Positions 5,468 to 19,418 of a stretch of 19,418 nt of DNA are shown here, one piece after another. Source of the stretch: Thermodesulfobacteriota bacterium. Its GTDB lineage: Bacteria > Desulfobacterota > Desulfobulbia > Desulfobulbales > SURF-16. The position numbers and the translations under genes were made by a program. The notes beneath the pieces are model-generated. The model had not been told where the DNA came from, searched no databases, and saw only the letters and a list, made by a program, of their open reading frames with translations. Every line of letters begins with the position of its first letter. Positions within the stretch are counted from its first letter, which is position 1. Location of the stretch: the NCBI GenBank assembly GCA_039715015.1, contig JBDLIE010000050.1, positions 1-19,418 of the forward strand, given 5' to 3'.

Positions 5468-5686
5468 GCTAATCACATTTCATAATGTGATTAGCACTAA
5501 TCTTCAGCTGTTTTGAGGCACGATTTCGTAGGAGCCTGCCCCTGCAGGCGATAGAGAGGCTATTTCATCATCACGCCTTGCCCACATCGCCCGCAGGGGC
5601 GGGCTCCTACAATTCAAACCTTACGAGTGTTTAGCCGCCATAATAATCAAGATTGGCTGAGATTCGAAGGTAATCACATTTCATAA
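5468..5686. repeat. 16-bp direct repeat (TAATCACATTTCATAA at 5470-5485 and 5671-5686); the first copy lies in a perfect 12-bp-stem palindrome (5468-5495)
   Basis: GCTAATCACATT-TCAT-AATGTGATTAGC is read directly from the sequence, and the 16-mer recurs exactly 201 bp downstream. Confidence 0.85.
5528..5610. repeat. GTAG-type REP doublet (REPIN-like): two inverted 25-bp REPs with a 33-bp spacer
   Basis: GTAGGAGCCTGCCCCTGCAGGCGAT (5528-5552) and the reverse complement of 5586-5610, GTAGGAGCCCGCCCCTGCGGGCGAT. Each has a GTAG foot plus an internal hairpin, and the two differences are compensatory. Confidence 0.85.
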
Positions 5687-6056: not shown

Positions 6057-6617
6057 ATGGAATTAGAGGGACCCAAACATCCCAGCAGTAAAAAGGCGTT
6101 GTGGGTCGGTCTGTCCATGGGGGTGGTTCTTGCCCTGGTTACTGTTTTGGCGTCTGGATTCATGGTTGAAACCACCAACACAGATAAATTTTGTGTCAGT
6201 TGCCACGCCATGACACCTTTTCGGATGTCGTGGAAAGAGTCGGTGCATGGCGGCCAGAACCCGCAGGGCTTTGCAGCCCAATGTGTGGACTGTCATCTGC
6301 CCCACGGAAACTTTGTTGAGTATCTGACGACAAAGGCGATTACCGGTACCGGCGATGTTATTCACAATGTGACGTTTGACCCGGAGAAGTTCGACTGGGC
6401 AGCAAATGCTGAAAAGAATCGGCTGGATTTCACCTTTGACAGCGCCTGTAAGGCCTGCCACCACAATTTGACTCCACCTGGCATCCCCAGAGGGGGGCTC
6501 ATTGCCCACCGAGCGTATCTCAGTGGTGAGACAAGAAAACAGTGCGCCGAATGTCATCCCCATGTTGGCCATAAGGACATGTTGGAAACCGCCACCACGT
6601 TTTTTCAACAACAATGA
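6057..6617 (+). CDS. NapC/NirT/NrfH-family membrane-anchored tetraheme cytochrome c (quinol dehydrogenase), 186 aa
   Basis: N-terminal TM helix and four CxxCH motifs (CVSCHAM, CVDCHLPH, CKACH, CAECHPHVGH). Strong RBS AAGGAGGT. Confidence 0.92.
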   Translation: MELEGPKHPSSKKALWVGLSMGVVLALVTVLASGFMVETTNTDKFCVSCHAMTPFRMSWKESVHGGQNPQGFAAQCVDCHLPHGNFVEYLTTKAITGTGDVIHNVTFDPEKFDWAANAEKNRLDFTFDSACKACHHNLTPPGIPRGGLIAHRAYLSGETRKQCAECHPHVGHKDMLETATTFFQQQ

Positions 6618-6657
6618 TCACCGTTAGATTGGTAAAGAGAAGAGGGAGGAAACAACG

Positions 6658-8028
6658 ATGAGAGAGAAAATTTTACAAAGAGGGCTGATGGGTTCAGCGC
6701 TGCTCGCGGGCGCCTTGCTGGTCGGTGCAACCACGGTCCAGGCTGCGGCCATGCCCAATATGGCCCCCAAAGAGGTTGTTGTCAAACGGTCGATTTCCAA
6801 AGAGGCGGCAGCCTGTATCGAGTGCCACGCCAAAAAGACCCCGGGAATTATTGAGGCCTGGAAAAACGGCAAAATGGGACATGCCAACATCACCTGTTAT
6901 GACTGCCATAGCGTGGAGAAAACCTCCCCCATGGCCAGTCAATGTTCCGGCATCAAGGGCAGTAAGACCTTTATCTCCCCCATGGTCTCATCAAAGACCT
7001 GTGCCCGCTGTCATCCGGCCGAGGTTGATCAGTTTATGAACAGCGCCCATGCCGATCTTTCCAGGATCGCCGTTTACGACGAGAAGAAGGCGGGCGGCAA
7101 GCTGGTGGCCCTGCAGCTCCACCATGAGGGTGGTGAATTCATGGGTGTCGAGAAAGGCTCTGCAGCCAACAACGCCTCCCGTCAATCAGGATGTCAGGTC
7201 TGTCATGGTTCTGAGGTCAAGGTTGGTCCTGATAATAAGCCAATTGCCGGGACCTGGCCGGCCGGTGTCGGCACCCTCTATCCGGACGGCTCGGTGGGCA
7301 CCTGTACGGTCTGCCATACCCGCCATCAATTTTCCGTGGCTGAGGCCAGAAAACCGGAGGCCTGCGCCAGCTGTCATCTTGGCCCGGATCATCCAGATAT
7401 CGAGATCTATCTTGAGAGTAAGCATGGCCAGATCTACCTCACCCAGGGTGAGGAGTGGAACTGGGATGCTGCCCCTGATACCTGGCAACCTGGTGACTAT
7501 ACGGCTCCCACCTGTGCAGTCTGCCACATGAGCGGTATTGGTGAACTGGCAACCACCCATAATGTTGAAGAACGCCTGCATTGGGACCTGATGCATAAGC
7601 GTAGTGAGGTGAGAAGCGGCATCCACGGCAACGGCGAGAAAGGCCGGCAGAATATGCGCAAGGTCTGCGTTAACTGTCATGGTCCGAGCCATACCGCCAC
7701 CCAGGAAAAAACAGTGGATGATGCGGTTGCCCTTTACAATACGTACTGGGACGGAGCTGTAAAAATGAAGGCTGATTTGAAGGCCAAGGGGCTGCTGAAA
7801 AAAGACGCCTGGCGTGACGGCTTTCAGGAGCTGATGTACTACCTCTGGCACCATACCGGTAGGAGGGCTCGTCAGGGTGCGGCAATGAACGCCCCGGACT
7901 ATGCCCACTGGCATGGCTTTTTTCAGATTTTTCAGGTCTACAAGGATATGGAAGATATCTACAACCACCGTATTAAGAATAACAAAATCGAGGATCTCAG
8001 TACTGTCATGAGTACTGGGCCTACTTGA
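6658..8028 (+). CDS. Octaheme hydroxylamine oxidoreductase-like cytochrome c (epsilon-Hao / reductive type), 456 aa
   Basis: Sec signal peptide and eight CxxCH motifs in Hao spacing. Family motifs [44 protein letters not shown] and [23 protein letters not shown]. Confidence 0.92.
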
Positions 8029-8331: not shown

Positions 8332-8505
8332 ATGGCGGCAGATCAGGCACGGATCAACAAGCGGATTACAGGGCTTGGCGAACAGTATTGGCAGCGGATG
8401 AAGGGCGAGATGCCCAGCCTTTTTAACAGTCATTACCGGCAGGGCCATCTTCTTGACTGGGTCATGGATGATGAGGCCTTTCAGGTTGATGTCTTCCTCC
8501 TTTAA
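8332..8505 (+). pseudogene. Truncated duplicate of the putA 5' end (57-codon ORF)
   Basis: 8332-8497 aligns without gaps to 12872-13037 (13 mismatches in 166 bp by hand count), then diverges to TAA. It has its own GGAGG RBS. Confidence 0.9.
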
Positions 8506-8544: not shown

Positions 8545-9819
8545 GTGCGAGAACAGGTAATGCTGTTGGTCATAGCCGTGCTGCTTCTTGTTGCCGGCTG
8601 CGCAGAGGAGCAGGGGGAGCAGCCAGGAGTGATGAAGCTCCAGGCATGGGTTCATGCCGGTCAACAGGCAGAGCGTTTGGTGCTTGAAGAACAGGTGGCC
8701 CGTTTTAATCGGCGTCAGCAAGGGGTTCAGCTTGAACTCACCTTGATTCCAGAACGTTCCTATAACGCCCAGATTCAGGCCGCCGCCCTGGCAGGCGATC
8801 TGCCGGACCTTCTAGAGTTTGACGGACCATACCTGGCCAACTACGTCTGGCAGGGGCATCTTCGCCCTCTGGATGATCTGCTGCCTTCGCAACTCAAAGA
8901 CGACCTGTTGCCATCAATTATTACTCAGGGTACCTATCGGGGCCGGCTTTTTGCTGTTGGCGTGTTTGATTCCGGGCTGGGGCTGTATGGCCGCCGTAGT
9001 CAGCTGCTGGCAACCGGCGCCCGCATCCCGGCCAGGCCTGACGAGGCGTGGGGCGCCGAGGAGTTCAGCAGGCTCCTCAAGGAGTTGGCCAAGGGCGATG
9101 CGGACGGTGCTGTCCTTGATCTTAAATTCAATTATCCTGGCGAGTGGTTTACCTACGCCTTTTCTCCCATTGTCCAGTCGGCCGGTGGAGATCTTCTTGA
9201 TCGGCGCCATTCGGGGAAGGCGGCCGGAGTCCTGGACAGCTCTGAAAGTGTGGGGGCCCTGACTCAGCTCCAGTCTTGGCTGGCTGCCGGCTATGTGGAT
9301 GGCAATGTTGATGATGCGGCTTTTGTCAGCGGCCGGGTGGCTTTGTCTTGGGCGGGCCATTGGGAGTATCGCCGCTATAAAGAGATGGTGGGGGATGATT
9401 TGGTTGCCCTGCCCCTGCCTGACTTCGGTTACGGTAGCCGTACTGGCCAGGGTTCATGGTGCTGGGGAATAACCGCAACCGGCGACAGGGCTAAGGCTGC
9501 CGGCACGTTTTTGCGTTTTCTGTTGAGGCCTGCGGAAGTGCTGGCCATGAGTGGTGCTAATGGTGCCGTGCCGGCCACCCACAGCGCCCTGGCCCAGTCA
9601 GAGCTCTACGGCCCCCGGGGTCCCTTGCATCTCTTTGCTGAGCAGCTCTCTGGGGGCATCAGTGTGACGCGTCCCCGCACTCCGGCTTATCCGGTGATTA
9701 CCTCTGCCTTTCAGCAGGCCTTTCATGATATCCGCCATGGCGCTGATGTCCGCACCACCCTGCAGAGGGCAGCGGCCATTATTGATGAGGATATTGCCGA
9801 TAATAAGGGGTATCCATGA
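8545..9819 (+). CDS. Carbohydrate ABC transporter (CUT1) substrate-binding lipoprotein, 424 aa
   Basis: GTG start with GAGGAGG RBS; lipobox LVAG-C; family-1 SBP motifs AGDLPDLLEFDGP, F.SG.VAL...GHW and RPRTPAYPVI. Confidence 0.92.
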   Translation: MREQVMLLVIAVLLLVAGCAEEQGEQPGVMKLQAWVHAGQQAERLVLEEQVARFNRRQQGVQLELTLIPERSYNAQIQAAALAGDLPDLLEFDGPYLANYVWQGHLRPLDDLLPSQLKDDLLPSIITQGTYRGRLFAVGVFDSGLGLYGRRSQLLATGARIPARPDEAWGAEEFSRLLKELAKGDADGAVLDLKFNYPGEWFTYAFSPIVQSAGGDLLDRRHSGKAAGVLDSSESVGALTQLQSWLAAGYVDGNVDDAAFVSGRVALSWAGHWEYRRYKEMVGDDLVALPLPDFGYGSRTGQGSWCWGITATGDRAKAAGTFLRFLLRPAEVLAMSGANGAVPATHSALAQSELYGPRGPLHLFAEQLSGGISVTRPRTPAYPVITSAFQQAFHDIRHGADVRTTLQRAAAIIDEDIADNKGYP

Positions 9820-10712
9820 CAGACGACCGGCATGGCAGGACTCTTATTGCCTGGTTTTTTATTGCCCCAGGCCTGCTGGGGTTGGCTCTTTTTGTCGCCT
9901 TGCCCTTTCTGCTGGCTGTGGGCCTTTCCTGCACCAACCTGCGCCTCGGCTCCCCTCTCCCCTTGGAGTTTGTCGGTTTCGAGCAGTTCCGGCGCATTTT
10001 CAGCGAGCCCACCCTGCTGCGGGCCCTGGCCAATAACGGTCTCTTTGCCCTGGTGGTGGTGCCACTCCAAACCCTGCTGGCTCTGGGGTTGGCCCTGCTC
10101 TTGAATCGTCGTCTGGCCGGGCTGATTTTCTTTAGGACTATTTTTTTTATGCCGGTGGTCTTCCCCCTCTCATTGGTGGCAGTGGTCTGGGTATTGATTT
10201 TTGCTCCGGGGATAAACGGTATGCTCAACAGCGCCTTGGATGTGGTGAGCCTCGGGGCTTGGCAGCCGCGGGACTTCCTCCATGATCCCTACCTGGCCCT
10301 GCCGGCAATCATGCTCACCTCCATCTGGCAGGGGATGGGCTTCCAGATGGTGATTATTCTGGCCGGGCTCCAAGCCATCAACCAGGAGCTCTACGAGGCC
10401 GCTGCCATGGACGGCGCGGGTAGATGGCGGCAATTTGTCAATATTACCCTGCCACAGCTTCGCAACACCTTGATCTTTGTGGTGTTGGTGACCACCGTTC
10501 TCGCCTTCCGCCTCTTTGACCAAGTGCAGATTATGACCCAGGGCGGGCCGCGCAACGCTACCACCACTGCTATGTACGAGGCAGTCCAGGCTGCCTTTGG
10601 CCGTCAGCAGGTGGGCAGGGGAGCTGCTATCACGGTGGTCCTTTTTTGCGTCGCCGTGGCTATCACCTGTCTGCAGCGCCGGATCATCCGTCAGGAGCGT
10701 CAGGTCTCATGA
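9816..10712 (+). CDS. Carbohydrate ABC transporter permease 1 (MalF/UgpA-like), 298 aa
   Basis: FVGFEQF, FRTIFFMP, EAA loop LAGLQAINQELYEAAAMDGA and ITLPQL; ATGA overlap with the SBP gene. Confidence 0.93.
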   Translation: MTDDRHGRTLIAWFFIAPGLLGLALFVALPFLLAVGLSCTNLRLGSPLPLEFVGFEQFRRIFSEPTLLRALANNGLFALVVVPLQTLLALGLALLLNRRLAGLIFFRTIFFMPVVFPLSLVAVVWVLIFAPGINGMLNSALDVVSLGAWQPRDFLHDPYLALPAIMLTSIWQGMGFQMVIILAGLQAINQELYEAAAMDGAGRWRQFVNITLPQLRNTLIFVVLVTTVLAFRLFDQVQIMTQGGPRNATTTAMYEAVQAAFGRQQVGRGAAITVVLFCVAVAITCLQRRIIRQERQVS

Positions 10713-11539
10713 CTTTTCGCGCTTGTCATACCCTCCTTTACCTGGTGCTTTGCCTATTGGCCCTGCTCTTTTTAAGTCCCATTTTGCTCATGGTCATGGG
10801 CAGTCTCAAGGCCGATGGCCGGGTGCTGGTAGAGGCCGGAAGCCTGAAGGCTTTCTGGCCTGGCCAGGTCAGCCTCAATAATTATGAAGATGTTTTTCGG
10901 CGCGTTGATTTTGGGCGTTACATGGTCAACTCTCTCTTTATCAACTGCTCCATTGTCATTAGCGGCCTGTTGGTCAATTCGCTGGCCGGCTACGCCTTTG
11001 CCCGTCTGCAGTGGCGCGGGCGTGATCTGCTTTTTGGTATGGTGCTGCTGGTAATGATTGTTCCCTTGGAGGCCATTGCCGTACCCCTCTTCTACCAGGT
11101 CACCCTCCTTGGTTGGCGCGATAGCTATCTCGTCCAAATTGTCCCTTTTATTGCCAACGCTTTTTCCATCTATCTCTTCCAGACTTTTTTCCTCGGCCTG
11201 CCCCGGGAGCTTGAGGAGGCGGCACGTATGGACGGCGCCGGAATTTTGCGTACTTTTTTCAGCATTATTGTTCCCAACGCCAAACCGGCCTTTGCCACAG
11301 CGGCTATCCTCACTTTTCTCAGCCAGTGGGGTGCTTTCCTTTGGCCCTTGATGGTCACCAGTGGTGAGGCGGTGCGGCCCCTGCCTCTGGCCATTGCCGC
11401 ATTCTACACCCTGCCGCCTCTGCAATGGGGGGATATTTTCGCTTTTGGGGTGATGATGGTCTCGCCCGTCCTGCTGGTCTTTCTCCTCTTTCAGAATTGG
11501 TTTGTCCGCGGTGTGGCCACAACCGGGATCAAAGGGTGA
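10709..11539 (+). CDS. Carbohydrate ABC transporter permease 2 (MalG/UgpE-like), 276 aa
   Basis: NSLAGYAFARL, LPRELEEAARMDGA and FLWPL motifs; ATG 10709 overlaps the previous stop (ATGA). Confidence 0.93.
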   Translation: MTFRACHTLLYLVLCLLALLFLSPILLMVMGSLKADGRVLVEAGSLKAFWPGQVSLNNYEDVFRRVDFGRYMVNSLFINCSIVISGLLVNSLAGYAFARLQWRGRDLLFGMVLLVMIVPLEAIAVPLFYQVTLLGWRDSYLVQIVPFIANAFSIYLFQTFFLGLPRELEEAARMDGAGILRTFFSIIVPNAKPAFATAAILTFLSQWGAFLWPLMVTSGEAVRPLPLAIAAFYTLPPLQWGDIFAFGVMMVSPVLLVFLLFQNWFVRGVATTGIKG

Positions 11540-11541
11540 GT

Positions 11542-12690
11542 ATGGCAACTCTTCTTTTCGAAAATATCAACAAGACCTTTAGCGATGGCACTGAAGCTAT
11601 CCATGATTTCAACCTGGAGGTCAGCGATGGCGAGCTTGTTGTTTTAGTGGGTCCTTCCGGCTGTGGGAAGTCAACCCTTTTGCGGCTGGTTGCCGGCTTG
11701 GAGAAGGTGAGCTCCGGGCATATTGCCATTAATGGTGAGCTTGTCAACGAGCAGCCACCCCAAGAGCGTAATATTGCCATGGTTTTTCAGAACTACGCCC
11801 TTTACCCCCATATGACAGTGCAGAACAATCTGAAATTCCCGCTTCGCATGATGGGCTTAAGCAAGGCAGATCAGACGAGAAGGATCGCCGAAGTCGCCCA
11901 GCTCCTCCATCTTGAGGAGCTGCTAGGGCGCCGGCCCAAGCAGCTCTCCGGCGGTCAGCGGCAGCGGGTGGCCATGGGGCGGGCTATCATCCGCCAGCCG
12001 CAGGCCTTTTTAATGGACGAACCCCTCTCAAATCTCGATGCCAAGTTGCGGGTTCAGATACGTACGGAGATTGCCGCCCTCCAGCAGCGCTTGCAAACAA
12101 CCACCCTCTATGTCACCCATGATCAGGTGGAGGCCATGACCTTAGGACACCGCGTTGCCGTCCTCAGCAACGGTCGTCTTCAGCAGGTGGCTAAGAGTCA
12201 GGATCTTTACAAGGCCCCTGCTAATATTTTTGTGGCGGGTTTCATAGGCAATCCAGGCATGAATATTTTCAAGACCCACCTGGCGGTCGGTGATGGTGAT
12301 CAGCTGGCTCTGGCTTGGGGTGATCGTTCTTTACCGTTGCCCGAGGCACGCGGCACGTATCGCAATCTTCTTAAGCAGGGAGAGCGAATCTGTTTCGCTG
12401 GGCTCAGACCAGAGGCCTTTTGCCCACCAGATAAGGCGGCAATCAAGGTAAGCGTTGAGGTGGCTGGCGTTGAGGCCCTGGGGCATGAACAGCTTGTCTA
12501 TTTCAAGAGCGAGGTGGAGGCCCTTGATAGTGATCGTTTTACTGCTGGGACCTCGCCGCCCCTTGCCGGCGGGATGGTGGCCCGCCTCTCCCATGAGCTG
12601 AAGGCACGGCCAGGGCAGAGAGTTGAGCTGGGTGTTGATCTGCAGGGGCTCTGTTTTTTCAACGACAGAGGGGGCGCTGCTGTTGGCTAG
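11542..12690 (+). CDS. Carbohydrate ABC transporter ATP-binding subunit (MalK/UgpC-like), 382 aa
   Basis: Walker A GPSGCGKST, VFQNYALYPHMTV, LSGGQRQRVAMGRA, DEPLSNLDAKLR and YVTHDQVEAM, with a C-terminal TOBE-like region. Confidence 0.95.
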   Translation: MATLLFENINKTFSDGTEAIHDFNLEVSDGELVVLVGPSGCGKSTLLRLVAGLEKVSSGHIAINGELVNEQPPQERNIAMVFQNYALYPHMTVQNNLKFPLRMMGLSKADQTRRIAEVAQLLHLEELLGRRPKQLSGGQRQRVAMGRAIIRQPQAFLMDEPLSNLDAKLRVQIRTEIAALQQRLQTTTLYVTHDQVEAMTLGHRVAVLSNGRLQQVAKSQDLYKAPANIFVAGFIGNPGMNIFKTHLAVGDGDQLALAWGDRSLPLPEARGTYRNLLKQGERICFAGLRPEAFCPPDKAAIKVSVEVAGVEALGHEQLVYFKSEVEALDSDRFTAGTSPPLAGGMVARLSHELKARPGQRVELGVDLQGLCFFNDRGGAAVG

Positions 12691-12871: not shown

Positions 12872-15844
12872 ATGACAGCAGAACAGAAACGGATCAACAA
12901 GCGGATTACAGAGCTTGGCGAGCAGTACTGGCAGCGGATGAAGGGCGAGATGCCCAGCCTTTTTAACAGTCATTACTGGCAGGGCCATCTTCTTGACTGG
13001 GTCATGGATGACGAGGCCTTTAAGGTCGATGCCTTCCGTTTTGTTGATGTGCTGCCCGCCCTCAACTCCACCTCAGCCATTGCCTCCCATGTCCAAGATT
13101 ACCTGTTACGCGATGATCGTAAGCTGCCAGTGGTTGTGCGCTCCGCGCTGGCCATGGCCAGCGGCGGCATTGCCGCGCCCTTGGCAACCCGCGCTATCCG
13201 CGCCAATGTTACGGAGATGGCCCGCCGCTTTATCTGTGAGAGTGACAGCAAAAAGGCAGTGGCCGCCTTTCAGAAGCTGGGTAAGGATAATCTCACCTTT
13301 ACTGCCGACATTCTTGGCGAGGCCAGCACCAGCGATGAGGAGGCGGACCGCTGCCTCCAGAACTATCTGAACCTTATTGCCCAGTTGGGTAAGGCCACTA
13401 AGAGGTGGCCCGATAATGATCAGCTCTATAACTCGCCTGCCGGGGCACTCCCTAAGGCCAACGTGTCGGTGAAGATCTCGGCCCTGGACCCCTATCTTGA
13501 CGCCATGGACCATCAGGGCTCGGTGGCGCGCCTCAAGGAGAGGTTGCTGCCACTCTTGCGGACCGCCCGGCGCCATAATGTCTTTATTAATTTTGATCTT
13601 GAGCAATGGGCCTGCCACGATATCACCTATGATCTCTTTGAGGCGGTGGCCCTTCATGCCGATCTCATCGACTGGCCCCATCTCGGCCTGGTCATCCAGG
13701 CCTATCTCAAGGCCTCGGGCAGTGATTGCAACCGCCTCCTGGAGTTGAGTGAAAAACGGGGCACTCCCTTTACGGTGCGCTTGGTTAAGGGGGCCTATTG
13801 GGATTATGAGGTGGTTCATGCCCGCCAGAACGGTTTTTTCTGCCCGGTCTACACCAATAAGGCCCGTACCGATCTAAGCTACGAGCATCTGACTGCCAAA
13901 CTCATTGAGAACCATGAGTTGATCACTCCGGCCTTTGCCAGCCATAACCTGCGTTCCCTGGTCCATGCCCTGGTTATGGCCGAGGAGCATGGTCTGCCGC
14001 GCAACGCCTTTGAACTGCAGATGCTCTACGGCATGGCCGAACCCCAGCGCCGGGTCTTAGCCGAGGACGGCTATCGTCTCCGTATCTATGCCCCCATTGG
14101 TGAGCTTTTGCCCGGCATGGCCTATCTGGTGCGGCGCCTTTTGGAAAACACCTCGAACGCCGGGTTCCTCCGCCAGAGTTACCACGAGGGTGTGGCCATC
14201 AATTCCATGCTGGCGGGCCCTGATCCCGGCCCGGAGATGGTTGAAGAGGAAAAGTTGGTGCGTGGTGATCTCCATACGCGCTTTAGCAATGTCAATCTCC
14301 TTGATTTCACCGATCCCAAGGTGCGCAGCAGGATGGCTGAGACAGTAGGCGCCATCCAAGAGAAACTGCCCTTAAGCGTGCCCTTTGTTGTGGGCGGCAA
14401 GATGACCAGCAAGGCCGTGAAGAACCATGTTTCCCCCAATGATCCCGCCTTGGTGGTGGCCGAGGTGAGTCAGGCCGCTAAGGGCCAGGCCAAAAAAGCA
14501 GTGGCAGCGGCCAAAGCGGCCTTCCCGGCTTGGCGGGACAGGCCAGTGGTGGAACGGGCCCAACTCCTTGCCACCTTGGCCGGTGTTCTGGAGAAGGATC
14601 GTTTTGAGCTGGCCGCCCTCCAGGTCCATGAGGTGGGCAAGCCGTGGCGTGAGGCTGATGCTGACGTGGCCGAGGCCATAGATTTTTGCCGCTATTACGC
14701 CCGCCGGTCCTTGAAGGAGTTACTACCCCAAAGGCAGGGGGGGATGGCTGGCGAGGAGAATGTTCTCTTTTATGAAGGGCGCGGCCCCTGTGTGGTCATT
14801 GCCCCCTGGAATTTCCCCCTGGCCATTCTCTGCGGCATGACCACTGCTGCCCTGGTTGCCGGCAATCCTGTGCTCATCAAACCAGCCGGAGCGGCCAGCG
14901 CCATTGCCTTTGAATTTTATCAACGTCTGCTTAAGGTCGGCTTTGGGCCCGAGGTGGTCCAGTTTCTGCCCGGCTCCGGTGCTGAGATAGGCAACTTCCT
15001 GGTTGGGCATCCAGATATCTCCCAGATTGCCTTCACCGGTTCTAAAGAGGTGGGCCTGGGGATCATTGAAAAGGCGGCCAAAACGGTGGCCGGCCAGCCG
15101 GAGGTGAAGCGGGTGGTCTGCGAGATGGGGGGCAAGAACGCCATAATTGTTGACGAGGATGCCGATATCGATGCTGCCATCAAGGGCGTTATGCAGTCGG
15201 CCTTTGGCTATGCCGGCCAGAAATGTTCTGCCTGTTCCCGCCTTATTTTGGTGGCTGATGCCTACCAGACCTTTATGCCGCGTCTCCTGGCTGCCTGTGC
15301 CAGCCTGCCCATGGCCTCAGCCCTTGATCCGGCCTGTCGCCTGGGGCCGGTGATTGATCAGGTGGCCCATGAACGGCTGGCCAAGGTGATTGCTAAACCG
15401 CCCAAGGGTGCCAAGCTGCACTTCTTGGGGGAGAACATGTCGCCGGGCTTCTTTATTCCGCCCGCCATCTTTGAGGTGAAAAAGGCTGATAATATAATGA
15501 TGCAACAGGAGTTTTTTGGGCCCATCATCACGGTGATGAGAGTCCCTGATTTTAGGAGAGCCCTGGAGGCGGCCAACAGCACCGAGTTTGCCCTTACTGG
15601 TGGTGTCTACTCCCGGAGCCCGCGCAACATGGAGGCGGCCCGCAGAAATTTTAAGGTGGGTAACCTCTACATCAACAGGGGCTGCACCGGCGCCTTGGTT
15701 CAGCGCCAGCCCTTTGGCGGCTTTGGCATGAGCGGCATAGGCACCAAGGCCGGTGGCCCAGGATACCTCCGCCATTTTTCCAACCCGCGCTGTGTCACAG
15801 AAAACACCATGCGCAGTGGCTTTACCCCGGACCTGCAGATGTAA
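12872..15844 (+). CDS. putA: Bifunctional proline dehydrogenase / P5C (GSA) dehydrogenase PutA, short type without a ribbon-helix-helix domain, 990 aa
   Basis: PRODH motifs VSVKIS, VRLVKGAYWD, ASHN, QMLYGMA and YLVRRLLEN; ALDH motifs PWNFP, FTGS, EMGGKN, GQKCSAC, EFFGP and QPFGG. The start at 12872 matches the ATG of the duplicated copy. Confidence 0.97.
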   Translation: MTAEQKRINKRITELGEQYWQRMKGEMPSLFNSHYWQGHLLDWVMDDEAFKVDAFRFVDVLPALNSTSAIASHVQDYLLRDDRKLPVVVRSALAMASGGIAAPLATRAIRANVTEMARRFICESDSKKAVAAFQKLGKDNLTFTADILGEASTSDEEADRCLQNYLNLIAQLGKATKRWPDNDQLYNSPAGALPKANVSVKISALDPYLDAMDHQGSVARLKERLLPLLRTARRHNVFINFDLEQWACHDITYDLFEAVALHADLIDWPHLGLVIQAYLKASGSDCNRLLELSEKRGTPFTVRLVKGAYWDYEVVHARQNGFFCPVYTNKARTDLSYEHLTAKLIENHELITPAFASHNLRSLVHALVMAEEHGLPRNAFELQMLYGMAEPQRRVLAEDGYRLRIYAPIGELLPGMAYLVRRLLENTSNAGFLRQSYHEGVAINSMLAGPDPGPEMVEEEKLVRGDLHTRFSNVNLLDFTDPKVRSRMAETVGAIQEKLPLSVPFVVGGKMTSKAVKNHVSPNDPALVVAEVSQAAKGQAKKAVAAAKAAFPAWRDRPVVERAQLLATLAGVLEKDRFELAALQVHEVGKPWREADADVAEAIDFCRYYARRSLKELLPQRQGGMAGEENVLFYEGRGPCVVIAPWNFPLAILCGMTTAALVAGNPVLIKPAGAASAIAFEFYQRLLKVGFGPEVVQFLPGSGAEIGNFLVGHPDISQIAFTGSKEVGLGIIEKAAKTVAGQPEVKRVVCEMGGKNAIIVDEDADIDAAIKGVMQSAFGYAGQKCSACSRLILVADAYQTFMPRLLAACASLPMASALDPACRLGPVIDQVAHERLAKVIAKPPKGAKLHFLGENMSPGFFIPPAIFEVKKADNIMMQQEFFGPIITVMRVPDFRRALEAANSTEFALTGGVYSRSPRNMEAARRNFKVGNLYINRGCTGALVQRQPFGGFGMSGIGTKAGGPGYLRHFSNPRCVTENTMRSGFTPDLQM

Positions 15845-17044: not shown

Positions 17045-17935
17045 ATGGAAAAGAAGATCCGCATCATCGGCGTGCCCATGGATCTGGGCCAGAACCACCG
17101 AGGGGTGGACATGGCGCCTTCTGCCATCCGCTATGCCGGGCTAAGTGAGGCGTTGCAGAAGTTGGCATATGAGGTCCATGACATGGGCAATCTCGCCGTG
17201 CCCCAGCGTTTTGGTCTGGAGGATATCAGCGAGCAAGCCCTGTACAGGGCCATCCACCATGGCTGTGAACTTGCCTGTGAAACCGGGCGGCAGGTGATTG
17301 AGGCGGGAGAGTCTGCAATTTTTCTTGGCGGCGATCATACCATTGCCCTGGGGTCGATCAATGGTATCAACAAAAATGGCCAGGTGGGGGTGATCTGGTT
17401 TGATGCCCATGCCGACTGCAATACCCCGGCAACAACGCTTACCGGAAACATCCACGGCATGCCCCTGGCCGTGCTCCTTGGCCACGGCTCCGAAGAGCTG
17501 GTTAATGTCGGCGGCTCCGGGGCCTGTCTGCACCCTGAGGATGCTGTTATTTTGGGGGTGCGGAATCTTGATGGTGCTGAGAAACAATTCCTTCGCGATC
17601 TTGGCGTAACGGTCTTTACCATGCGCGATATTGATGAACAGGGGATGGCGGCGGTGATGACCAAGACCCTCCATGATCTCCGCCATTGCTCCCAGCTCCA
17701 TGTCAGCCTGGATATGGACGGGCTTGATCCCAAGGATGCCCCCGGCGTCGGCACCCCCTGCAGTGGCGGCATTACCTATCGTGAGGCCCAGCTGGCCATG
17801 GAGATCATTGCCGATACTGGGCGCTGTCTGTCGTTAGATATCGTGGAAATTAATCCAATTTTAGATCAGGGAAATAAGACGGCACAGATTGCCGTGGAGT
17901 TGGCGGCCTCCTTGGCTGGCAAGACTATTTTATAG
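17045..17935 (+). CDS. rocF: Arginase, 296 aa
   Basis: IGVPMDLGQ..RGVDMAPSAIR, GGDH, DAHAD, GNIHGMP, SLDMDGLDP..APGVGTP and EINP (Mn-binding ureohydrolase motifs, arginase subtype). RBS AAGGAG. Confidence 0.95.
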   Translation: MEKKIRIIGVPMDLGQNHRGVDMAPSAIRYAGLSEALQKLAYEVHDMGNLAVPQRFGLEDISEQALYRAIHHGCELACETGRQVIEAGESAIFLGGDHTIALGSINGINKNGQVGVIWFDAHADCNTPATTLTGNIHGMPLAVLLGHGSEELVNVGGSGACLHPEDAVILGVRNLDGAEKQFLRDLGVTVFTMRDIDEQGMAAVMTKTLHDLRHCSQLHVSLDMDGLDPKDAPGVGTPCSGGITYREAQLAMEIIADTGRCLSLDIVEINPILDQGNKTAQIAVELAASLAGKTIL

Positions 17936-17994
17936 ATTTGGATTATCCCTGGGAAGTTGCTTCCTGTATTTATCTCCCTTCTCGTAATGTCCTT

Positions 17995-18193
17995 TTGTTC
18001 CTTTTTACTCGTCTAAAAAGGAACCGAAAAAGGACGCCCCTAACAGCCCTGGCCTGACGGCACCACTCGCCTTCCGCCGTGAAAGGGGCATTGCCCTTCG
18101 ACAGGCTCAGGGGCCGGGCTTTTAAACTCATAGTTCGTACCCTGAGCCTGTCGAAGGGTGCCCGGCTCCCTGCTTGCTCAGGGCTGAATGGGG
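17995..18193. repeat. Structured intergenic repeat element, copy 1 (about 200 bp, MITE/REP-like)
   Basis: 17995-18075 is about 88% identical to 19340-19418. Internal inverted pairs: CCCC..CAGCCCTG / CAGGGCTG..GGGG (18037-18051 / 18179-18193) and GCCGGGC / GCCCGGC (18113-18119 / 18160-18166). Confidence 0.85.
18094..18158. repeat. Perfect 19-bp inverted repeat of the CCTGAGCxTGTCGAAGG REP-like type
   Basis: CCCTTCGACAGGCTCAGGG (18094-18112) and CCCTGAGCCTGTCGAAGGG (18140-18158). Confidence 0.9.
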
Positions 18194-18298
18194 AAACATC
18201 TAAACCCCATAAACCCACTTTGGGTGAAATATATCGCTCCTTTTCCTTGGATAGGCTACCTTGGTGGTCAGACATGATACGACCTACCAGGAGAACCC

Positions 18299-19279
18299 AT
18301 GGCAAAATATAAACCCCAGCATTCCCGTCTGCTCTTTATTGACCGCAAGATTCAGGAGGGTTGTTTTCCCAACTGCAGCAGCCTGGCGGAAGAGTGGGAG
18401 GTGAGCGGTAAGACCATCCAGCGCGATCTTGACTATATGCGCTATCAGCTCGATGCCCCCCTGGAGTATTCGGCTAAGGATCGCGGCTATTATTACACCG
18501 AGGCGCGTTTCCAGTTGCCGGCCATGGATGTTAAGGAGAGCGATCTCTTTGCCATCTACCTGGCCGAAAAACTCCTCAGCCAGTATGAGGGCACCCCGGT
18601 CTATCACAACCTCTGTCAGGTCTTTCAGAAGATCGAGGACTCTCTGCCCTCCAAGACCTCCCTGGGGCCGGGTTCTGATTTCTCCAGGTTCTCCTTCTTC
18701 TCCGCCGCCCAGACCATGATCCAGCCCGGCATCTGGCAAGCGGTCTTTGAGGGCCTGCGCACCCTGCACAGTATCGATATTACATACCAGCTCCCCACCA
18801 GCCAAGAAGCACCACAACGCCGCCGCATCGACCCCTACCATGGAGTCCGTTTTGAGGGCGATTGGTACGTCATCGCCTACTGCCACCTGCGCAAAGACAT
18901 CCGCACCTTCAGCCTGGCCCGCATCATTGAGGCCGAATCAAGCAAAGAAAGCTTCTCCATCCCCGAAGATTTCGACTTCCAGGCCATCAGCGCCAGCCAT
19001 TTCGGGGTACATTGGAGCGATGAGGAGACCTTGGTGCGTATCCGTTTCAGCAGCAAGGTGGCGCCCTATATCAAGGAGCGTACTTGGCACCAGAGCCAGG
19101 AGATCAGTGACAATAGTGACGGCAGCCTGGATTTAGAGCTTACGGTCAGTCATCTTTTTGAGCTGAAGAAGTGGTTGCTTTCTTGGGGGAGTCAGGCCCA
19201 GGTGTTGGAGCCGGTTGCATTGGCTGAGGAGGTCAAGGCTGAGGTGGCGGCTATTGTCGGGTTGTATGAGGGGAAGTGA
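18299..19279 (+). CDS. HTH-WYL-WCX transcriptional regulator (PafB/PafC/YafY-like), 326 aa
   Basis: N-terminal wHTH (LAEEWEVSGKTIQRDLDYMR..GYYY); WYL domain (RRIDPY..WYVIAYCHLRKDIRTFSLARI); C-terminal WCX domain (WHQSQ, WLLSWGSQAQVLEP). RBS AGGAG. Confidence 0.95.
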   Translation: MAKYKPQHSRLLFIDRKIQEGCFPNCSSLAEEWEVSGKTIQRDLDYMRYQLDAPLEYSAKDRGYYYTEARFQLPAMDVKESDLFAIYLAEKLLSQYEGTPVYHNLCQVFQKIEDSLPSKTSLGPGSDFSRFSFFSAAQTMIQPGIWQAVFEGLRTLHSIDITYQLPTSQEAPQRRRIDPYHGVRFEGDWYVIAYCHLRKDIRTFSLARIIEAESSKESFSIPEDFDFQAISASHFGVHWSDEETLVRIRFSSKVAPYIKERTWHQSQEISDNSDGSLDLELTVSHLFELKKWLLSWGSQAQVLEPVALAEEVKAEVAAIVGLYEGK

Positions 19280-19339
19280 TTTCGGGGGTGGAGTAAGGGG
19301 GCTTTGGGTGTTTTGATTTTGTTTGGTTGCCAGTGATTC

Positions 19340-19418
19340 TTGTTCCTTTTTGTTCGCCCAAAAAGGAACCGAAAAAGGGCGCCCCAGCAGCCCTGGCCTG
19401 ACGGCGCGCTCGCCTTCC
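19340..19418. repeat. Structured intergenic repeat element, copy 2 (truncated by the window end)
   Basis: Direct repeat of 17995-18075 with 8 substitutions and 2 single-base gaps by hand alignment. Confidence 0.88.

Follow-up and report, generated by a model that had tools for sequence, protein, structure and literature searches.

The minus strand of an intergenic bacterial repeat of ~190 nt, two copies of which lie in the window analysed here (19,418 nucleotides of a Thermodesulfobacteriota genome), is predicted to form a capped rod and, behind it, a triple-helix pseudoknot, and the molecule that folds is likely single-stranded DNA. The repeat is spread across phyla, its stems are paired, three of its strands covary, and a subset of its copies in the genus carries ISL3 ends. 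From our point of view, this knot-and-rod element appears to be an undescribed structured repeat, judged by its sequence, and the triple-helix knot, which seems to be under selection, would be its unusual part.

The first-pass annotation had reported two 44-nt stretches at one end of the window as a pseudoknot-forming element, and the sequences and coordinates it gave for both are exact. The two ends lie at 17995-18040 and 19340-19385 in the same orientation, 1345 nt apart and with 89% identity over 46 nt (repeat family D3). They differ at five positions, four of which do form two compensatory pairs: the change from A-T to G-C at 18007/18014 affects the closing pair of a hairpin and that from T-A to C-G at 18012/18034 a pair of the knot, while the fifth, at 18008, lies in a loop. 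Chance is excluded for the two stretches, since the motif terminates a repeat for which nhmmer gave 31 matches in the 3.0-Mb genome (~30 copies; a few matches are weak or partial). The motif is hence real, but 44 nt is too short a delimitation, as it represents one end of the ~190-nt repeat, whose copy 1 spans positions 17997-18193.

The folding strand of copy 1 is the minus strand of the window, read from its 5' end at 18193 towards the 3'-terminal knot, and the covariance model R1 recovers it at 17990-18200 on this strand with 120 bits (E 1.7e-37). The rod (18037-18193) is closed by CCCC/GGGG pairing of 18190-18193 with 18037-18040 and comprises stacked helices, bulges and a side hairpin; its usual TGAGC-GNA-GCGAG tip is replaced in this copy by an inverted pair of another, REP-like repeat (18094-18158), the 19-nt arms of which are 100% complementary. 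In the knot, the 5' arm of stem S1, CGTC on the minus strand (18033-18036), has its partner at 18010-18013, and the third strand L1, a T5 tract at 18027-18031, is predicted to lie parallel on the A5 tract 18002-18006. The 11-bp stem S2 (17997-18024) is predicted to form between a pyrimidine arm at 18014-18024 and a purine arm at 17997-18007, and its loop (18008-18013) contains the 3' arm of S1. Copy 2 (19342-19418, minus strand) consists of the knot and the first part of the rod, where it is ended by the end of the contig at 19418 (R1 match 19335-19418, 75.8 bits).

The REP-like repeat nested in copy 1 has 33 matches in the genome and has a TGAG...CGA core in common with the knot-and-rod tip. 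Several of its copies flank a gene for a 101-aa GIY-YIG protein elsewhere in this genome (contig C51, 1370-1900, L563), and the two could possibly represent a nuclease-repeat pair; R1 found no knot-and-rod copy at that locus.

Regarding the local setting, an arginase-family gene (17045-17935, plus strand, Pfam PF00491) is the upstream neighbour of copy 1, and a WYL/WCX-domain regulator gene (18299-19279, plus strand, PF13280 and PF25583) lies between the two copies, outside the element. The regulator gene was considered as cargo and rejected as such, as its orthologue is found in 5 of 5 relatives irrespective of whether the repeat is present or absent. In 4 of these 5, putA is directly joined to the WYL gene, a gap that is filled here by copy 1 and two arginine-catabolism genes, and at the site of copy 2 a copy or remnant occurs at the same place in 3 of 5 genus relatives. 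Elsewhere in the window, a 166-nt direct repeat of the putA 5' end (8332-8497 and 12872-13037, 92% identical) brackets an ABC sugar-transporter operon (8545-12690), and a 46-nt upstream motif is shared at 1962, 8226 and 12737; this arrangement resembles the scar of an insertion that left a dead putA start behind. We further note a typical REP doublet at 5528-5610, that is a GTAG-tagged inverted pair with 25-nt arms and a 33-nt spacer, and a NapC/NirT cytochrome beside a 456-aa multi-haem cytochrome at 6057-8028.

Beyond the window, BLAST detected the repeat in each of the 7 other genus genomes and, among 33 relatives at a greater distance, in 3. R1, which was built from an alignment of 33 full-length copies (A1; one of 34 candidates was omitted) and thus from copies of this family only, matched in 35 of 101 genomes of the order. 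A 19-nt tip motif occurs at no fewer than 126 loci in GTDB contigs, which among the matches listed belong to Proteobacteria, Bacteroidota, Bacillota, Nitrospirales, Acidobacteriota and others, and at 119 loci in viral contigs; about 42 of the viral matches fall within one recurring phage ORF and were treated as chance, as were most matches to a looser motif pattern. When R1 was applied to 33 sources, 25 of which were tip-motif genome loci, it recovered full-length homologues on the same strand (E 1e-8 to 1e-25) in Bacteroidota, Beta- and Gammaproteobacteria, Nitrospirales and Sporomusaceae. Copies number from 1 to 90 per genome, are intergenic and lie near the 3' ends of genes.

A full copy was also observed between two head-gene ORFs of a recurring prophage (L316, L318, L319, L323, L327, L347 and related viral loci), which we take by eye to be P2-like, and such a prophage-borne copy is a possible route of horizontal transfer. 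In phage and plasmid collections, BLAST gave no match to either one distant or one local copy. A comparison with Rfam 15, which the first-pass annotation had suggested, matched no described family: the window and 40 related loci stayed below any gathering score, apart from one unrelated tRNA match, and matches to miRNA models, far under the gathering score, were discarded. Likewise, no description was found in the literature texts searched by concept and short sequence motif; the family may nevertheless be listed among the motifs of PMC5737381, PMC8632094 and PMC6429828, in the ITxF database or in Hoyne 2000.

On alignment A1, RNAalifold predicts the rod and a terminal hairpin with 49 pairs, 29 of which show two-sided changes. 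Read 5' to 3' on the minus strand, the rod begins with a C-run and continues through stacked helices with purine bulges to a TGAGC-loop-GCGAG tip, a return arm with a side hairpin and the G-run that closes it. A GCGNAGC-type hairpin thereby caps the rod, and an H-type pseudoknot comes next, in the order S1 5' arm, pyrimidine loop, short linker, S2 pyrimidine arm, S1 3' arm, 0-3 nt and S2 purine arm. Both interleaved stems covary, with S1 being 97.7% paired in the 33 copies (13 two-sided changes at 2 of its 4 pairs) and S2 97.8% paired (two-sided changes at 6 of 11 pairs), numbers that overstate independence since the copies are related and the stem changes in A1 are not independent events. None of 500 shuffles reached the value of S1, and slid registers gave 13-49%. 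Across phyla, the S1 arms are very different in sequence and their complementarity is kept. The pairing of the loop with the downstream strand, which had been proposed from the two window copies, is hence upheld over many copies. Among the matches listed, 219 unique tip-motif matches include 89 with the S2 hairpin and only 75 with the knot according to a descriptor that is blind to the third strand.

Several variations of this architecture were observed. A 16-nt GNA-hairpin module can be inserted beside each of the three A tracts in the knot; it occurs on both strands, with junctions that keep the fold, and is carried by copies on contigs C16, C18, C20, C28, C30, C33, C36, C67 and C73 of this genome and by genus relatives. 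In Beta- and Gammaproteobacteria (L509-L533, L259, L224, L252), a further small hairpin that ends in GAAAC or GAGAC follows the knot and is absent in the genus. The flank past the knot is mildly A+C-rich (0.55-0.58).

As both tracts, T5 and A5, are invariant in the genus, the window's own copies provide no test of the triplex, and the evidence for it comes from relatives. A first set of heads comprised 74 of 75 knots that could be parsed, 50 of them unique among the matches listed; in these 50, the mean parallel match was 6.22 nt compared to 4.51 nt in permutations (0 of 10000 as high), and among the 29 asymmetric heads of the same matches the parallel register was the better one in 18, the antiparallel in 1, with 10 ties. 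The second, independent set consisted of heads found by the model, which does not score the triples, at 23 of 30 loci of the order scan, 3 loci from the training family and 4 without listed coordinates having been omitted. Here, 22 of 23 heads were exact and C stood opposite G at 19 of 20 positions, compared to 1 of 20 in the reversed register. Moreover, four species carry the same simultaneous three-strand change at one orthologous site in Ralstonia. Because the third strand matches changes of the purine strand in parallel register, selection for a triple helix on the minus strand appears well supported. The pyrimidine-motif triplex of the first-pass annotation, including the coupling of its third strand to the purine tract, is hence found again in both head sets, and selection for a single-stranded structure, which it had also put forward, agrees with the covariation of both pseudoknot and triplex. 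Its sixth, C+.G-C triple turned out to be optional: the base after the T5 run is C in just 17 of 51 heads (G in 32, another base in 2), although wherever C occurs the purine strand has G opposite (17 of 17).

One could argue that this covariation is a mutational by-product of template switching in inverted repeats and of gene conversion, so that only the hairpins matter and no triplex is selected. Mosaic copies and module swaps indeed show frequent conversion, each of the three A tracts has, in one copy or another, received the 16-nt hairpin module, and the triplex columns never vary in the genus. However, template switching and conversion yield direct or complementary copies, not the mirror image that the third strand represents, so that selection for the triplex would be the simplest reading. 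The parallel register further prevails by 18 to 1 and 19 to 1 with many tract patterns and in several phyla. We thus regard a mutational origin of the pattern as very improbable and, from the sequence comparisons, as already largely refuted.

The mirror match would also be compatible with a purine-motif triplex on the opposite strand (coupled classes, in the available part of PMC4666352). Nevertheless, the minus strand is favoured as the folding strand: it shows 42 G-T compared to 11 A-C wobbles in a tally of the A1 pair table, and 11 compared to 5 in a second count, and folding energies favour it in 26 of 30 cases as RNA and in 29 of 30 as DNA. The H-type geometry, in which loop 1 crosses the major groove, points to this strand as well. 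Since RNA and DNA energies favour the same strand, they do not separate the two molecules. The loops are more telling in this respect. With the loop left free, 72 tip loops comprised 42 cGNAg, 9 GNRA, 2 GNYA, 1 GNAB, no UNCG and 18 others, and in side hairpins cGNAg was found 15 times on the minus strand vs 2 times on the other, with GNRA at 5 vs 6; the pan-bacterial and viral tip scans required GCGNAGC and are not counted as evidence for DNA-type tips. Such loops belong to the mini-hairpins that are extra stable as DNA: according to the available part of PMC13037366, the melting temperature of d(GCGNAGC) is 70-76 °C, that of r(GCGAAAGC) just 39 °C. With regard to neighbouring genes, 26 copies were placed 9 times in sense and 8 times in antisense between co-directional genes, 9 times between convergent and never between divergent genes. 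Because the loops are of DNA type and the copies ignore the direction of transcription, single-stranded DNA is favoured over RNA as the acting molecule, and between the two functions imagined in the first-pass annotation we lean towards a structure by which a mobile repeat is recognised, and away from the end protection of a non-coding RNA.

The latter idea can be widened to a structured non-coding RNA or an RNA-borne (retro-)element, in which the minus strand would be transcribed and protected at its end by the 3' triple-helix knot, as in ENE- or telomerase-type triplexes. It would be in line with the position of the knot at the 3' end of the folding strand and with the H-type, major-groove U.A-U knot geometry, which is an RNA architecture with RNAs as its precedents. 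In addition, the excess of G-U/G-T over A-C wobbles (42 to 11) fits RNA as well as DNA, 9 of the 72 tip loops are GNRA, and in one Flammeovirga operon all three copies are in sense orientation. We nevertheless consider an RNA unlikely, as the loops are mainly GNA triloops and include no UNCG, nothing resembling a promoter precedes the folding strand in the window, several copies show a terminator-like hairpin (by eye) just 5' of it, and no reverse transcriptase is found among the neighbours.

In many taxa, the copies occur back to back, as do 21 of 23 close pairs and 42 of 62 motif matches in the Ralstonia genome G056; both pair orientations occur in the order, and tandem arrays in Flammeovirga. 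The match list of the present genome has no inverted pair within 400 nt, its copies are not arranged in pairs, and no heads-in pairs were found in viral contigs. The spacers of back-to-back pairs (L220, L546, L615, L621, L624, L650) are often non-coding, strand-skewed simple repeats of up to 400 nt. A partner gene did not emerge: Pfam searches of 122 neighbour ORFs detected neither a transposase nor a nuclease nor a reverse transcriptase, and no theme among the neighbouring genes, clustering of 1220 ORFs from 373 loci gave no recurring mobiliser, wide pairs held no partner gene, and 45 back-to-back pairs ~500-560 nt apart in metagenomes enclosed, among the pairs listed, non-coding spacers or one Rieske gene.

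This arrangement resembles that of REP/REPIN sequences and their RAYT transposases, which in the available parts of PMC3116915 and PMC3733652 are likewise non-coding, multi-copy, intergenic and found as tandem clusters and inverted pairs (the latter here in Ralstonia and not in the present genome), are never seen between divergent genes (here 0 of 26), persist at a site for long and serve as the target of another IS. As a multi-copy extragenic palindromic repeat, the knot-and-rod element shares the general REP trait. It differs, however, in its unit of ~190 nt with rod and knot, compared to a palindrome of 20-40 nt in the same available parts, and by eye its ends have no GTAG/CGTC tag. Moreover, none of the 6 Y1_Tnp/RAYT loci in this genome adjoins a copy, the 4 of them that were scanned with R1 gave no match, and none was found among the 122 neighbours.

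Copies can be long-lived. At one Ralstonia site, 21 of the orthologues that could be aligned (23) retain the element, the other two seem to have lost it by deletion and no clean empty site was found; at this fixed site the element is a mosaic of module variants, and such persistent but mosaic copies would point to exchange between copies. Retention together with deletion-like losses also fits an element kept by the host, i.e. a domesticated chromosomal or mRNA signal for protein docking, replication priming or restart, or transcript stabilisation, which is held by selection and rarely spreads. The presence of the repeat behind the WYL gene in 3 of 5 relatives could be seen in the same way, and of the 30 loci on one Ralstonia chromosome (G056:C1), 21 are no further than 500 kb from the inferred origin (p 3e-6). 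Mini-hairpins are further described at the primase start sites of phage G4 and of ssiA (PMC13037366, available part). However, the origin clustering comes from one genome only, 66 of the 101 order genomes searched gave no match to the repeat, its copy number varies from 1 to 90, copies are truncated, deleted or interrupted by IS elements, and their neighbour genes share no theme, so that from our point of view domestication is improbable. A bias towards the leading or lagging strand was considered too and dropped, as single copies were mixed by eye.

In the genus, one vehicle can be named. Many copies are enclosed, at a constant distance, by a pair of inverted 22-nt repeats, and these match the end of a remnant of an ISL3 transposase (PF01610, contig C39). 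Both ISL3 ends are present on 13 of 62 full-length genus copies and not on the other 49, and in 7 of the 13 the flanks match at 7-8 of 8 bases, as for an 8-bp duplication (0 of 20000 permutations as high), which fits miniature elements (MITEs) mobilised by ISL3. In the window, copy 1 shows decayed ISL3-type flanks only: on its left, the inner inverted repeat and linker (17940-17996, plus strand) align to the flank of an intact copy with a score of 52, reached by 2 of 1000 shuffles, and on its right there is a weak remnant (18194-18258, plus strand; score 39, reached by 6 of 1000). Copy 2 has no such flank, its score being reached by 323 of 1000 shuffles. The assembly (100 contigs) holds only broken ISL3 pieces, and neither this end nor the repeat was found on any of 17 other ISL3 loci. 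No empty-site joint was seen in two DNA runs at one ISL3-bracketed copy, a 324-nt skip with 25 letters on one side having been disregarded, and a further check for empty sites gave strain variation only. With ends that match an ISL3 transposase end, 8-bp AT-rich duplications, lengths of 284-374 bp and no coding capacity, this genus subset is comparable to ISL3-mobilised MITEs such as the 187-nt MITE of Microcystis (PMC11448079, available part); the likeness applies, however, to 13 of 62 copies only, and no such ends were seen by eye around copies in four other lineages. ISL3 ends are hence a vehicle of the knot-and-rod family and not its definition.

A second IS has used the repeat as its target. 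Five left and four right copy halves break at one point in the tip, and four of these run into the ends of another IS. This IS is multi-copy and unassembled, has IS110/IS1111-like ends and sits in the conserved tip of ~five copies; it corresponds to the contig ends of C16, C17, C67, C35, C76, C4, C69, C32 and C93. Its subterminal inverted repeats and two-base core presumably place it with IS110/IS1111, a family call made from end features alone since the genome has no PF02371 match and a 29-aa piece has no Pfam match; in one relative, only end remnants were found.

Taken together, we infer from these comparisons how the strand folds, in which molecule and for which enzyme, and the account that we consider somewhat more probable than improbable is that of a non-autonomous repeat whose minus strand would fold as single-stranded DNA, the fold being the signal for a trans-acting enzyme. 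Such an enzyme would likely copy or rewrite the repeat, as REPINs depend on RAYT. The strand may fold when it is exposed at a replication fork or in an intermediate of transposition or recombination; the GCGNAGC-type caps would nucleate folding, and the knot would mark the 3' end and block a polymerase or exonuclease. Strand exchange between copies could swap modules and thereby yield mosaic copies at one orthologous site. In the genus, some copies would likely have travelled as passengers within ISL3-type miniature transposons of ~300 bp, and the IS110/IS1111-like element likely struck about five at the conserved tip. More tentatively, and with less probability, one could speculate that these repeats represent a pan-bacterial class of folded single-stranded DNA, defined by a knot that covaries in three strands and a rod capped by a mini-hairpin, with propagation or maintenance of its own (e.g. 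as a priming or cutting signal for a host replication or repair enzyme) and no dedicated transposase.

Among known structures, the H-type pseudoknots of telomerase RNA and SAM-II as well as the ENE triplexes likewise have the pyrimidines of loop 1 running parallel to the stem 2 purine strand, with 5-10 triples. These are, however, functional RNAs present in single copy, whereas the knot-and-rod is a dispersed repeat with DNA-type loops and without an Rfam match that is known from DNA sequence alone. The conserved tip has the same sequence as the mini-hairpin d(GCGNAGC) found at single-stranded DNA priming sites and N4 promoters (PMC13037366, available part), a likeness by sequence alone, and the tip is replaced in window copy 1. 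The BoxC/PIT/TM-ECO family (PMC4666352, available part) is also comparable, being an intergenic repeat of bacteria in which one strand carries three triplex-forming tracts in succession. Membership in this family was rejected, as its G-rich class II purine-motif triplex of 33-37 nt, with the consensus CCCTCNCCC...GGGNGAGGG given there, is not what the knot-and-rod heads contain: these are A/T-rich, follow the class IV order on the folding strand, are knotted and have a rod attached. The word 'pseudoknot' does not occur in the available part of PMC4666352.

Whether bacteria make natural use of nucleic acid triplexes has long been asked, and BoxC/PIT, a known triplex repeat, had no in vivo effect in the tests summarised in the available part of PMC4666352. 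A third strand that changes together with both duplex strands across phyla provides direct comparative evidence for a selected triple helix. The present study gives one concrete route of spread, the ISL3 ends, and identifies the tip as an IS target, in a repeat that is small and present in up to 90 copies in cultured strains. If its acting form is DNA, it would represent a rare natural single-stranded DNA fold beyond the hairpin, cases of which are called rare in the available part of PMC5737381.
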